Source of the DNA: Escherichia coli
Lineage (GTDB): Bacteria; Pseudomonadota; Gammaproteobacteria; Enterobacterales; Enterobacteriaceae
DNA: 64,000 nucleotides
Strand: one strand, 5' to 3'
Assembly (NCBI RefSeq): GCF_024223415.1
Contig: NZ_CP100501.1
A model generated the notes under the pieces. That model had not been told where the DNA came from and did not search any database. It saw only the letters and a program-made list of their open reading frames with translations. This document shows positions 9,267 through 15,265 of this stretch, piece after piece (position 1 is the first letter of the stretch; every line of letters begins with the position of its first letter). The position numbers and the translations under genes were made by a program.

Positions 9267-10365
9267 TGTGATTATCCTCGGTATCTGTGGCTTTCAGGAA
9301 CAGGCTGACGGTAGTGGCGTCTTTCAGGATGCCGGACGGCAGGTGCCAGCCGGTATCGGATAACACCCATGGGGTACCGCCAAAACCGAACTGGCGGAAA
9401 GCCTGGTTATTGACATCGATGGCAGCACGAGCAGCGGTCAGACACTTTTCATCCGGTGCAGCCGGTGCATCGCCGGTGGGTGCCATACCACCGTCTGCGG
9501 AATACAGCTGATGCCATCCGGTCGCCCGTTTTTGTGCGTCCGGTTCACACAGCAGTGGCGCAGTCCGGTTTGTGCTGGCCTCTCCGCCGATTACGGAGAC
9601 CGGATAAATCACCACGCTGAATTCCCGGGCCAGTTGCTTAAGCGCGGGCTCCAGAAGACGGCAGTTGATGCATGCGGGGTCAAGGAAGGCGTAGAGTGTG
9701 CGTTCATGACCAGTGGAGAGATTAATGGTGAACATACCCCGGTCCGCGTTGCGTTTAAGTACAGTGGCCAGATTACGGCGGGCTTCAGCGACCAGAGTAT
9801 TTTTGTCTGCTGTTATCGCCGGGGTAGCGGATGTCTCCTGCATTTCCTGTGATGCCGGGTGAACGATTTCATTTTTCGTCTCTGACGGGGCTACTGACCG
9901 GACAATTTCCTTGTCGATGTGTAATGGTGCTGTTTCTGTTACGGATTCTGTGACAGGTACCCTGAGAGGGGAATCGCTGTCCGGTTTCAGTAAAATATAT
10001 CCGGCTGTTACCGCTGTCAGAAGTGCCAGCACTAATCCTGCACCGTATATCAGCCCTCTCATGAAGCTGGTTTTCCGGGCAGGAAGTTCTGCATATGCCG
10101 CGCTCAGACAGCTGTCAATCGCGGAGAGCATTCTGCCGATGTGATGTCCGGGACGTTCAGTATCAACGGTATCAACAAGCAGTGTTTCGGTTATTTCACG
10201 AAAAGGGGTGCTGAAGGACAGGTGCATCAGCCTGTTATTACGGTTAATCAGTGCGCCCAGTTCTGTAACCGGCAGGATGGCAATAACCTCCTGACCACCG
10301 TCAGGGTACAGGGCGGTCAGGGACAGGTGTTTATTGTTCAGTGTTGCAGTGTAGCGGATGGTCAT
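9247..10365 (-). CDS. trbB: periplasmic thioredoxin-fold protein, DsbC-like disulfide isomerase (TrbB-like)
   Basis: CxxC motif (CINC) within LDPACINCRLLEP; TM/signal-anchor segment; start overlaps trbA stop (ATGA); true start may be internal. Confidence 0.65.
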   Translation of the reverse strand: MTIRYTATLNNKHLSLTALYPDGGQEVIAILPVTELGALINRNNRLMHLSFSTPFREITETLLVDTVDTERPGHHIGRMLSAIDSCLSAAYAELPARKTSFMRGLIYGAGLVLALLTAVTAGYILLKPDSDSPLRVPVTESVTETAPLHIDKEIVRSVAPSETKNEIVHPASQEMQETSATPAITADKNTLVAEARRNLATVLKRNADRGMFTINLSTGHERTLYAFLDPACINCRLLEPALKQLAREFSVVIYPVSVIGGEASTNRTAPLLCEPDAQKRATGWHQLYSADGGMAPTGDAPAAPDEKCLTAARAAIDVNNQAFRQFGFGGTPWVLSDTGWHLPSGILKDATTVSLFLKATDTEDNHNEPASR

Positions 10366-11696
10366 TGTGCTTTTTCCTTGTCGGCGGGATGCTGTTTTTC
10401 GGTGGTTTCGGTGGTTTCGGTGGTTTCGGTGGTTTCGGTGGTTTCGGTGGTTTCGGTGGTTTCGGTGGTTTCGGTGGTTTCACCAGTGTCAGTGTCTTCG
10501 TCGTTATCATGGCGGCGGGGTATCACGTCATCCGTGAGTGACCAGCGGGTCCTGATCTGACGTTTACGATCGCGATCTGGCTGAGGTTCGTCCCATATCA
10601 GGCCCAGCCCCAGCATGTCCCGTCGAAGCCCTTCAATGGCCTCTTCCACACAGGGTTCCGGGCAGGGGAGGCCGAGACGGCTGGCTTCATTTTCTGCCCG
10701 GGCAACGGCCACCACGCCGGCCCCTTCGATGAAGCCTTTTGTGGTGTTTGCCCGGTGAAGGGCATAGAAGAGCGTCCGGTCAACGCCCTTGAGCCACAGC
10801 CAGTTCGGAGGCGTCAGGCGCAAATCATGTGCGTAAAGCCAGACCAGACCGCTGCGAACGTAACGGTGCTGCCTGAGCCACTTTTGTGCGCCTTCTGTTT
10901 TGATGACCCGGATAAAGGCGTTTCTGGCCAGTGAATACACCGGCGTGCTGAAACGCCCCTGGTCCCGTTTACTTTTGAGCCTGCAGGAGAGATTGAGGTT
11001 GTTCATCAGGGCTACCGCTGCTTTCCGGTCACCGAGGAAGAACTGCAGGCCAAAGATGGCAAAGAGCGCTTTTTCATGTGGGGCCATGTCTTTCCAGCTG
11101 GTCAGTGGTTGCCCCAGTTGCGCCATGAAGCACTGGCGTGTGGACGCAACATCGAGCTGCATGTTGCGGATAAGGTTGTTCTGCTCCACAAAGGCTTCGG
11201 GGGTTAGTGCGACACGGCGCTCGGGACGTTTTTGTCCGTGGAAGAGTCTGTTGTTGTCTCCGTCAGCCAGAACGGGGGCGATCGCCGGTGACAGAGCTGA
11301 AAAAATATGGGGCAGTGTGTGGATATTCAGTGGCCTGCGGGTAAAACGGGGCTGGGCCGGATGGTGAAACCACATCCACAGAAAGCCGAATGTCATGGGA
11401 AGCAGAATCAGCCAGAGGATCCCCACTGTCCGGGACATAACATCCAGCCACTGGCTGAAAGTGATGGTTGCCGCGTTGTTAGCAGTGATGGCCAGCAGGT
11501 TGTAACGGGGGACGGCAAAGTTGTGAAAGGGCCCCCAGTCAATCATGCCCCACAGTGTGTGCAGGATCAGGCAGGAGGCGAAGACGATTTCAGGTAAAAA
11601 GCGCCAGATGATAATCGCAAAGAGCAGGCATATGGCACCGACGATATACCATATAGCCATTGGATCTTCGGCGGCAGACGTCTGTTGGTAAGACAC
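10362..11696 (-). CDS. trbA: TrbA-like inner-membrane transfer protein (DotM/IcmP-like partner of the coupling protein) with C-terminal TTE tandem repeat
   Basis: 444-aa product with N-terminal TM helices; gene order trbA-trbB-trbC; C-terminus contains (TTE)x9 encoded by a 9-bp repeat. Confidence 0.6.
   Translation of the reverse strand: MSYQQTSAAEDPMAIWYIVGAICLLFAIIIWRFLPEIVFASCLILHTLWGMIDWGPFHNFAVPRYNLLAITANNAATITFSQWLDVMSRTVGILWLILLPMTFGFLWMWFHHPAQPRFTRRPLNIHTLPHIFSALSPAIAPVLADGDNNRLFHGQKRPERRVALTPEAFVEQNNLIRNMQLDVASTRQCFMAQLGQPLTSWKDMAPHEKALFAIFGLQFFLGDRKAAVALMNNLNLSCRLKSKRDQGRFSTPVYSLARNAFIRVIKTEGAQKWLRQHRYVRSGLVWLYAHDLRLTPPNWLWLKGVDRTLFYALHRANTTKGFIEGAGVVAVARAENEASRLGLPCPEPCVEEAIEGLRRDMLGLGLIWDEPQPDRDRKRQIRTRWSLTDDVIPRRHDNDEDTDTGETTETTETTETTETTETTETTETTETTEKQHPADKEKAQ
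10401..10481. repeat. 9-bp tandem repeat GGTGGTTTC x9 (encodes ETT/TTE repeats at the TrbA C-terminus on the minus strand)
   Basis: Read directly from sequence. Confidence 0.85.
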
Positions 11697-11847
11697 GGGG
11701 ATTCCTCCATAGATGAATGGATAAATTTCGGGATTAAGTCGGGTGGCATGAATGCGAATCAGCGCCGGTAATAACCGGACAGGAATGAATTCAACAGGAC
11801 ATTTTTACAGAGAAGAGCGAACGGCAGAAGGTGGTGGGAGACAGGTA

Positions 11848-11879
11848 CAAAAAAACCGACTGGTGAGGCCGGTTTTTTT
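11848..11879. terminator. possible bidirectional terminator-like hairpin between the nuclease gene and trbA
   Basis: AAAAAACCG ... CGGTTTTTTT inverted repeat with A/T runs on both sides; weak call. Confidence 0.25.
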
Positions 11880-12478
11880 GCGATTCCGGGGTGGAGTTGG
11901 TGGCTCTGACCGGAGGAAGTCTCTTTTCAGCTAACAATGAGAGAGCTGTTGTGACAGGCAATGTAAGAGTAAGCAGCAGTGATTTCCTCCATTGACGGAG
12001 AAACGGATGATTAACCTGTTAATCATCGTTCTCAGGGCGGTTGTTGCTGTGGCTAACGCAGTGATAGCTCTCCGGGAACTGGTTGACTGATAATCCCGGA
12101 AACGTACTTAAGGGCAGAGGGTCACCTCCTTCTGCCCTTTAACAAAATATGCTCAGGTTAAAAATCGAAAACCTTCCTGCACTTCCTGTGCCTGTTCCCG
12201 TGAGCCAAACATGAGCCGGCTTTTACCCGGAACTCCCCAGGAAATATATTCTACATCCACCCACCATTTTCCGTATTCTTCATACGGTCCGGATATCACT
12301 TTAGTGACAAATGCATCAATCAGGTTCATTTTTACACCTTTCTGTTATTCTGCTTATTACGACCAGCAGACAGCAAATATTAAAAATAACGCGGCGGTAA
12401 AAATGGCAATTTTTTTCATGCTGTATTTTTGCCATTTATTTTCTTTGAAATGGTTTTTTTCTTCATATCAGCAAATAA

Positions 12479-14717: not shown

Positions 14718-14971
14718 CGGTGGGGTACAAACGCAGAAATTTTGTTGTCATTACATCATCAGTTTTAGCCTGCAGAGACGCTGAAAAATCAGCGTTTTCA
14801 GACCCTGTTCAGGTTAGTGAATATTCTTGCCTGGCCTTTCGGCAATATCAATCCCCTGATGTGTGCACACGTAGTCACTTTCCGGCTTTATTTCTGTCCC
14901 TGACACAAAATACGTGGTGGCATGAAAAGGATTGTGGCGGACAGGAAAACGATTAGAATAGCGGCGGGCGC

Positions 14972-15265
14972 TTGAGGCTGTATGCCGAAAGCGTTTTGTG
15001 GACGGCATGTAGCAGAAAGCCCCAGGCGATTTTTTTATCAATCAACCCAGGGCCCACTGTAATGCCTAGACAACATTATAGTAGCCCGATGACGGCCGAA
15101 AGGCAATGGAGGGGCTGCGATGCCACAACGAACGTTTTTAATGATGTTAATCGTCGTCTGTGTGACGATACTGTGTTTTGTCTGGATGGTGAGGGATTCG
15201 CTTTGCGGATTTCGTATCGAGCAGGGAAATACGGTGCTTGTGGCAACGTTAGCCTACGAAGTTAA
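14972..15265 (+). CDS. pndC: pndC/mok-like leader reading frame overlapping the Hok-type toxin gene
   Basis: ORF in a different frame that overlaps pndA almost completely, as in hok/mok and pndA/pndC loci; start uncertain. Confidence 0.5.
   Translation: MRLYAESVLWTACSRKPQAIFLSINPGPTVMPRQHYSSPMTAERQWRGCDATTNVFNDVNRRLCDDTVFCLDGEGFALRISYRAGKYGACGNVSLRS

Follow-up and report, generated by a model that had tools for sequence, protein, structure and literature searches.

The trbA gene in a 64,000-nt stretch of Escherichia coli DNA (contig NZ_CP100501.1, assembly GCF_024223415.1; analysed as a whole and called the window below) carries, close to its 3' end, a perfect array of nine 9-bp units whose copy number differs among closely related plasmids. 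This array is almost certainly a genuine hypermutable, in-frame variable-number tandem repeat (VNTR). It is probably driven by replication slippage within a tolerant acidic tail of the conjugal transfer protein TrbA. That the length of this tail has only a small, nearly neutral effect on function is somewhat less secure, yet still likely.

Direct reading gives nine copies of GGTGGTTTC arranged head to tail at positions 10401-10481, with zero mismatches. Tandem Repeats Finder delimits the array at 10397-10481, with a period of 9, 9.4 copies, 100% matches and a score of 170, while the second-best array in the 64-kb window scores 49. Given that the probability of eight further exact copies of a 9-mer (72 bases) is about 4^-72 per position, a chance origin is excluded. 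The two features concerned are the following.

10362..11696, minus strand: trbA coding sequence, 444 amino acids plus stop, predicted DotM/IcmP-like subunit (open reading frame, Pfam, PDB, Foldseek, annotation of relatives).

10397..10481, minus strand: in-frame VNTR, (GAAACCACC)9 plus the partial unit GAAA (full units at 10401-10481), encoding (Glu-Thr-Thr)9.

The coding strand is the minus strand, on which the array reads (GAA ACC ACC)9 inside the open reading frame (ORF) 10362..11696, and the C-terminus of TrbA is ...RRHDNDEDTDTG-(ETT)9-EKQHPADKEKAQ*, the residues DTDTG directly preceding the repeat. The preliminary description of this DNA had reported nine perfect units encoding a (Thr-Thr-Glu)n tail at the C-terminal end of a TrbA-like protein. 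Both the units and the coding are confirmed, (TTE)9 being (ETT)9 shifted by one residue. The position holds as far as the C-terminal part of the protein is concerned, but not for the exact terminus: (ETT)9 corresponds to residues 406-432 of the 444-residue TrbA, and 12 residues follow. With 9.4 copies at 100% identity, the array clearly exceeds the three high-identity head-to-tail copies expected of an in-frame coding VNTR, and its 9-bp unit is a multiple of three within a real ORF, that of trbA.

Copy number (n) was surveyed with a 401-bp query centred on the array, applied to the PLSDB plasmids and to 5,426 complete E. coli genomes. The locus was matched in 470 PLSDB plasmids (394 from Escherichia, 60 from Shigella, 8 from Klebsiella, 6 from Salmonella and 2 from others), 463 of which are conjugative according to MOB-suite prediction, and in 392 E. 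coli RefSeq records belonging to 380 of the 5,426 genomes (7%). In every full-length match from either source, the length offset from the query is an exact multiple of 9. At all 22 loci that were fetched to span the full range, the copy number inferred from length equals the counted one, and all 22 alleles keep the frame, running on into the same tail and stop codon, as anticipated in the preliminary description from the size of the unit. The PLSDB copy numbers come from 60 evenly spaced plasmids among the 470, from the 60 best matches, and from two further queries, one of 6 kb and one a bait with 30 copies. The evenly spaced sample is distributed as follows.

n = 1 to 7: seven plasmids with n=1, seven with n=2, three with n=3, seven with n=4, five with n=5, nine with n=6 and six with n=7.

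n = 8 to 13: five plasmids with n=8, three with n=9, three with n=10, one with n=11, three with n=12 and one with n=13.

The E. coli genomes sampled show a similar distribution. The highest copy number in PLSDB is n=16, found with the 30-unit bait query in pZPK-H21 (LR999864), followed by n=13 (9 records) and n=12 (at least 18 records), so that the overall range is 1-16. The expectation that tail length varies between isolates is therefore correct.

Copy number was then set against the divergence of the surrounding backbone. For this purpose, 2,200 bp of flanking sequence were aligned without the array, and single-nucleotide polymorphisms (SNPs) were counted from the alignment; a 6-bp indel in trbB also occurs among the loci. 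Three groups of nearly identical haplotypes were compared.

IncK2 cluster (seven plasmids plus the window), at most 2 flank SNPs in 2,200 bp: n=4, 9, 9, 10, 11, 12, 13 and 16.

pCT-like cluster, at most 1 flank SNP: n=5, 7 and 8.

CP035866 and CP022673, 0 flank SNPs: n=5 and n=2, respectively.

Hence, the comparison among related plasmids proposed in the preliminary description does not yield identical copy numbers, even for backbones separated by 0-2 flank SNPs, and copy-number polymorphism among close relatives is independent of flank substitutions. The same is seen over longer distances: about 50 plasmids sharing at least 99.3% identity with the window over 6 kb have n=4, 6, 7, 8, 9, 10, 11, 12, 13 or 16. 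In one pair of records for a single plasmid type, MT707656 (119,378 bp, n=12) and MT725450 (119,333 bp, n=7), the 45 bp that separate the record lengths are equal to five units. These results show that copy number changes far faster than the flanks gain substitutions.

The alleles are nevertheless heritable and reproducible. The n=12 allele, with at least 18 independent records, comes from isolates of farm, slaughterhouse, food and clinical origin. Moreover, the approximately 133-kb plasmids of isolates SB17103, SB18001-SB18004 and SB18102 have, between them, n=10, 10, 10, 10, 9 and 6. Six ST1286 isolates, 13-90 chromosomal SNPs apart, were described from one Danish slaughterhouse in 2017-18 (PMC11047599), and the link between these plasmids and that study is by isolate name only, with four of the six names occurring there. 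Together, these observations suggest a locus that would mutate, per locus, orders of magnitude faster than a nucleotide site, without being scrambled within an outbreak.

It may be argued that such differences are errors of assembly or consensus calling, to which repeats are exposed. The locus in CP016548 appears with both n=11 and n=12 in an untrimmed 24.8-kb terminal overlap, a pair which is either heteroplasmy or consensus error, and draft assemblies often end exactly at the array, as in the partial proteins P0002 and P0056, which stop at ...DTDTG(E). On the other hand, all length differences are exact multiples of 9, and alleles recur independently, across laboratories and platforms: n=12 and n=13 in the numbers of records given above, and n=5 in pCT-like plasmids reported by many laboratories over many years. 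The length of most arrays does not exceed 144 bp, which fits a single short read, and the internal unit variants (ACT, ATC) are arranged as a real duplication history predicts. A technical origin of the variation as a whole is thus highly improbable, and artefact explains at most a small part of it.

Two side observations concern these records. NZ_CP016548.1 (strain O177:H21) is an untrimmed circular long-read assembly in which positions 1-24836 (24,836 bp) and 65986-90835 (24,850 bp) align with 0 mismatches and 35 indels, its true plasmid size being about 66 kb rather than 90.8 kb. The partial TrbA proteins P0002 (405 aa, 96 members) and P0056 (406 aa) end at the first residue of the array (window positions ~10479-10484); given that these draft proteins end exactly at this point, short-read contigs evidently break at the array.

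The composition of the alleles bears on how the array arose. The one-copy allele, GAA ACC ACC GAA ACC CGG, is already a proto-repeat of 1.7 copies, and two synonymous unit types, with ACC and with ACT, expanded separately at the same site. Units of the form GAAACCACC expanded in K1, K2 and B/O/Z-type lineages, with EKQH as the continuation of the tail, while units of the form GAAACCACT did so in a lineage known mainly from large plasmids of Shiga toxin-producing E. coli (STEC), with ETRH as the continuation. That two marked units expanded independently at one site points to a sequence which is itself prone to slippage, rather than to one historical insertion. In pO104_H21 (NZ_CP023542.1) there are eight units, one ACC-type followed by seven ACT-type, one of which mutated from ACT to ATC, giving GAAATCACT (Ile-Thr-Glu). 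This interruption should stabilise the array of that plasmid and could mark the STEC-plasmid lineage.

Slipped-strand misalignment is the accepted mechanism for short tandem repeats. Both strands of the trbA array, taken as single strands, fold to a minimum free energy of 0 kcal/mol; instability driven by hairpins or other structure was rejected on this basis, a two-tetrad G-quadruplex of the GG-rich strand lying outside that test. Given that neither strand folds, plain slipped-strand misalignment between identical units is the simplest mechanism. Replication slippage would thus add or remove whole 9-bp units, and because only whole units are gained or lost, neither the frame nor the trbB start that overlaps trbA is ever affected. 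The resulting (ETT)n tail would be a flexible acidic extension with little depending on its exact length, most alleles being nearly neutral.

The protein in which the repeat lies was identified by family, fold and neighbourhood. TrbA matches the Pfam family DotM_C (PF23127) with E=1.5e-47 and 162.5 bits against a cutoff of 27, over residues 185-358, and the product name given to relatives is "IncI1-type conjugal transfer protein TrbA", which agrees with the host gene having been called TrbA-like. DotM/IcmP chains in the PDB match it by sequence at about 1e-7. With the NCBIfam model NF033890 (DotM_IcmP_IVB), TrbA scores 70.7 bits, below the equivalog cutoff of 230, and is hence a homologue, not an equivalog, of Legionella DotM. 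An AlphaFold2 model built from a 21-sequence alignment presents a mean predicted local distance difference test (pLDDT) score of 71, with values of about 80-90 in most of the N-terminal helices and in the DotM-like domain. A Foldseek search with this model returned 13 DotM chains, with E-values from 5e-7 to 1e-5 and target-normalised TM-scores of 0.65-0.83 (0.70-0.83 for the DotM cytoplasmic domain), the next match being at E=1.7; the model has the all-alpha DotM fold. A DotL/VirD4-like ATPase gene, as expected near a member of the DotM family, is found in trbC, two genes downstream of trbA. Judging from sequence and model, TrbA is the subunit of DotM/IcmP type in the type IVB coupling complex, and the conjugative plasmid that encodes it is IncK2-like (I-complex, B/O/K/Z clade). 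By the same homology, TrbA would itself belong to the coupling complex, rather than being a partner outside it. The repeat is outside the conserved domain, as the coordinates of domain and tail indicate.

10623..11144, minus strand: DotM_C cytoplasmic domain, residues 185-358 (Pfam PF23127).

10365..10580, minus strand: low-confidence C-terminal tail, residues 373-444 (AlphaFold2 pLDDT below 50; alignment).

In the alignment, the conserved core ends at about residue 358 and is followed by the family-conserved LGLIWDEPQPDRDRKRxIxxxWSLTDD, beyond which the tail diverges. The tail consists, in order, of the family-conserved PDRDRKRQIRTRWSLTDD, the clade-specific acidic DNDEDTDTG, the repeat, and the last 11 residues, KQHPADKEKAQ. 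Its pLDDT is below 50 across residues 373-444, the sole regular structure being a short low-confidence helix at the very end, and these residues are read as intrinsically disordered on the strength of the model. Each unit contributes one negative charge, so the net charge of the tail goes from -4 (n=1) to -12 (n=9) and -19 (n=16).

The tail of the window's clade departs from that of the family. More than 30 other TrbA clusters have an acidic tail of 12-16 residues with a C-terminal Phe, e.g., ...RPGQEDDEQPF, in place of which the window's clade ends in DNDEDTDTG-(ETT)n-E[KQ/TR]HPADKEK[A/E]Q. Sequence comparison shows that the repeat is absent from these more than 30 clusters and from R64 TrbA, and it is therefore specific to the clade of the window. 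As a side observation, nearly every TrbA outside the B/O/K/Z clade ends in acidic residues plus Phe (...DDSPF, ...TDNEF, ...DESF; clusters P0003-P0042), and this conserved terminal motif is lost in the repeat-bearing clade.

Several results suggest that tail length is largely tolerated. Alleles from n=1 to n=16 are widespread on plasmids predicted to be conjugative, whole clades do without the repeat, copy numbers are broadly spread without a visible optimum, the repeat lies outside the conserved domain, and pCT, which has n=5 here, conjugates efficiently (PMC6868128). Other results weigh against near-neutrality. An acidic tail is found in nearly every TrbA clade, with a net charge mostly from -1 to -5, which suggests that tail charge matters, and a shift from -4 to -19 is large for something without effect. 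Legionella DotM binds Glu-rich peptides (PMC5802825), and by analogy a Glu-rich tail on its homologue TrbA could interact with a DotM-like site. As to the variation itself, CP016548 gives two copy numbers for one physical locus, and some of the copy-number variation in databases may thus be technical.

The points on charge lead to an adaptive alternative, in which the (Glu-Thr-Thr)n tail would be a working part of the coupling complex that can be adjusted. As an acidic pseudo-substrate or competitor it might, in cis or in trans, occupy a putative DotM-like acidic-peptide-binding surface of TrbA; alternatively, it might be a spacer that determines how far TrbA reaches towards TrbC or TrbB. Under this reading, plasmid populations would owe to slippage a heritable variability of transfer rate or of the choice of substrate, and the array would be a graded rather than an on/off contingency locus. 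Legionella DotM recruits effectors by Glu-rich acidic C-terminal signals through basic patches (PMC5802825, PMC7280309). Its R314, the one highly conserved residue of the site, corresponds in the alignment to R307 of TrbA, a residue shared by all 21 TrbA sequences compared. However, the other binding residues of DotM are unconserved in TrbA: D203 stands opposite R217, and R196/R197 belong to an insert that aligns poorly. Neither does the AlphaFold2 model show a confident docking of the tail. The presence of acidic tails in nearly all TrbA clades speaks for a role of charge, and the occurrence of a single nonsynonymous unit (ITE) against many synonymous variants would fit, if weakly, a constraint acting on the protein. 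Yet near-identical poultry backbones carry from 4 to 16 units within a broad distribution that has no visible optimum, and repeat-free clades conjugate normally, as R64 does. Considering both sides, we regard tuning as unlikely. Its most specific version is less likely still: a slippage-tunable pseudo-substrate at the acidic-signal site of TrbA or of a neighbouring subunit in a hexameric coupling complex, whose length would set the admission of DNA and protein substrates such as the NikB relaxase and the Sog primase. If it were true, the tail would be a heritable and quickly adjustable control on conjugation rate and fitness cost for I-complex plasmids.

Tuning also draws on the analogy with the variable QQP repeat of F-like TraD, which, by analogy, is the closest specific counterpart of the trbA repeat. 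This is likewise a tripeptide repeat of variable length between related conjugative plasmids, is part of an unstructured extension at the C-terminus of a coupling-complex protein, and adjoins a region of partner or substrate specificity. In TraD, it is next to the partner-binding tail, and it has been proposed as the source of plasmid-specific behaviour (PMC3245843). When F is compared with R1/R100, the stretch is QPQQP (5 residues) in TraD of F and 23 residues long in TraD of R1 (PMC3245843). The two proteins are nonetheless not homologous: TraD is a VirD4-type ATPase of the mating-pair formation class MPF_F, while TrbA is a DotM-type subunit of MPF_I/type IVB, and the TraD repeat is composed of Gln and Pro and is neutral, while that of TrbA is composed of Glu and Thr and is strongly acidic.

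Apart from the protein, the array could act through the gene that follows, whose start overlaps the end of trbA.

10362..10400, minus strand: post-repeat codons of trbA, which form the trbB initiation region (AAGGA at 10375-10379; ATG at 10363-10365; trbA TGA at 10362-10364).

9247..10365, minus strand: trbB, predicted DsbC/thioredoxin-like (weak Thioredoxin_2 match; relatives are named "DsbC family protein"), overlapping trbA and directly downstream of it.

The trbA stop and the trbB start overlap as ATGA, and a Shine-Dalgarno-like AAGGA lies within the last trbA codons. As the array is 35 nt upstream of the trbB start, copy number might alter mRNA structure or the hand-over of ribosomes and so set the level of the DsbC-like TrbB. 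The overlap, the position of the Shine-Dalgarno sequence inside trbA and the prediction that the array is largely unpaired in the mRNA are all compatible with this. Nevertheless, in the mRNA model the predicted unpaired probability of the region from the trbB Shine-Dalgarno sequence to the AUG remains at 0.75-0.76 for n=0-20, the distance from trbA stop to trbB start is constant across n, and the frame is undisturbed in the 22 alleles. An effect on trbB translation was accordingly rejected, given this constant accessibility, and is very unlikely to account for the array. A phase-variable (on/off) contingency locus was also rejected, since the 9-bp unit leaves every allele in frame and the predicted accessibility of the trbB ribosome-binding site is constant with n.

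The identical motif at a regular 9-bp spacing could also be taken for a cis-acting DNA element, i.e., iteron-like binding sites or a recombination signal, instead of coding repeats. The array, however, belongs to the ORF of an essential gene and leaves the frame in no allele; some functional plasmids carry a single copy, and R64 carries none. It shows neither dyad symmetry nor secondary structure, by direct reading it is not a Chi sequence, and the Rfam scan of the window finds no RNA family over the array. The probability of such an element is close to nil.

Compared with known systems, slippage in a tolerant tail would place the trbA array in a familiar class. Like the coding VNTRs used for typing by multiple-locus VNTR analysis (MLVA), and in-frame repeats of bacterial proteins at large, it has perfect short units whose length is a multiple of three, a copy number that outpaces point mutation, and probably slipped-strand mispairing as its mechanism; those loci differ in being in chromosomal surface-protein genes or intergenic, whereas the trbA repeat is in an essential cytoplasmic transfer protein of a conjugative resistance plasmid. 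With the tetranucleotide or homopolymer contingency loci of Neisseria and Haemophilus it shares the hypermutability of simple repeats, which gives heritable variation, but these loci switch on and off by frameshift or promoter spacing, while the trbA array is always in frame. The DotM/IcmP protein of Legionella pneumophila (PDB 6EXB, 5X1U, 6SZ9) has the homologous cytoplasmic domain, the N-terminal helices and a gene beside that of a DotL-like ATPase; in contrast with TrbA, to which it is about 25-28% identical, it stops about 18 residues past the domain and has no tandem repeat.

The nearest well-studied relative is R64 (IncI1), compared from NC_005014. Its TrbA is an orthologue with about 76% identity, encoded in the same trbA-trbB-trbC order and essential for conjugation. 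It differs in having 402 aa, with a short acidic ...PRTPATDNEF and terminal Phe, and an 18-nt spacer before trbB rather than ATGA. No 9-bp tandem occurs anywhere in the R64 trbA gene. Relative to the IncI1-type TrbA group, the window has thus kept an orthologous core (about 76% identity) and the trbABC synteny, lost the terminal Phe and gained the VNTR. In addition, the trbA frame of the window's clade was seen to run on through the sequence that is intergenic in R64, the 18-nt spacer of NC_005014. Searches of open-access full text brought up no account of the repeat, the comparative-genomics papers on IncK2 included, where trbA and tandem repeats go unmentioned. Hence, while an in-frame coding VNTR in a disordered tail is a well-known kind of feature, the trbA instance is apparently new.

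IncK, IncK2 and IncB/O/Z plasmids rank among the main vehicles of blaCMY-2 and blaCTX-M in poultry, in humans and in Shigella. Because the locus changes faster than the remaining backbone, the trbA array could serve as a cheap single-PCR sub-typing marker for near-identical plasmids along the food chain or in an outbreak, and plasmid comparisons based on SNPs alone miss it. Other practical consequences are the length heterogeneity of TrbA, the breaks of draft assemblies inside trbA and the shifting names of the gene (TrbA, DotM-related subunit, hypothetical protein). In RefSeq, alleles with n<=9 are named "IncI1-type conjugal transfer protein TrbA", those with n=10, 11, 13 and 16 "conjugal transfer protein TrbA", and those with n=12 "hypothetical protein", newer records using "secretion/conjugation apparatus DotM-related subunit". 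The tail of this DotM-type subunit is an evolutionarily plastic, always acidic appendage, and the natural allelic series of 1-16 units bears on the role of such tails in substrate recruitment by type IVB coupling complexes. Mechanistic interest is modest unless tail length tunes the coupling complex.

Regarding the gene itself, trbA is essential for conjugation in pCT (PMC6868128) and in pMS7163B (PMC10286972). The former paper labels pCT trbA "a putative regulation protein", which is at odds with the homology to DotM. The exact TrbA sequence of the window has no match in a collection of 15 billion proteins, owing to private substitutions. At residue 62 (positions 11511-11513), the window has Val, where Ala is conserved to at least 90% in a set of 21 TrbA sequences.

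Over the 6 kb that surround the repeat, identity to plasmids typed IncK2/Z is 99.7%. A full-length PK-repZ pseudoknot (167 bits) at 63838-63988 on the plus strand, at the window edge, marks an I-complex replicon. Downstream of trbB lies the gene of the partner subunit of TrbA.

6993..9266, minus strand: trbC, predicted DotL/VirD4-like coupling ATPase homologue (NCBIfam NF041447, 1008.7 bits against a cutoff of 800; also Pfam TraG-D_C).

The last ~90 codons of trbC (~6993-7270) are 86% identical to the closest IncK2 relative, CP056076, after which the two sequences are unrelated. In CP056076, trbC is followed by the relaxase gene nikB; the window instead has transposase-sized ORFs and two matches to ALIL, the frameshift pseudoknot of IS3-type elements (421-507, 5256-6188). 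This suggests, from the alignment with that relative, a recombination or insertion breakpoint at the 3' end of trbC. On the other side, an Rfam match to the AgrB antisense RNA at 11847-11934 (minus strand) lies just upstream of trbA, where relatives annotate the DinQ-like type I toxin dqlB, and a match to the sok antitoxin RNA of hok/pnd-type systems was found at 14966-15122 (plus strand). The nuc-trbA region is thus flanked by two type I toxin-antitoxin loci, AgrB/dqlB and sok.

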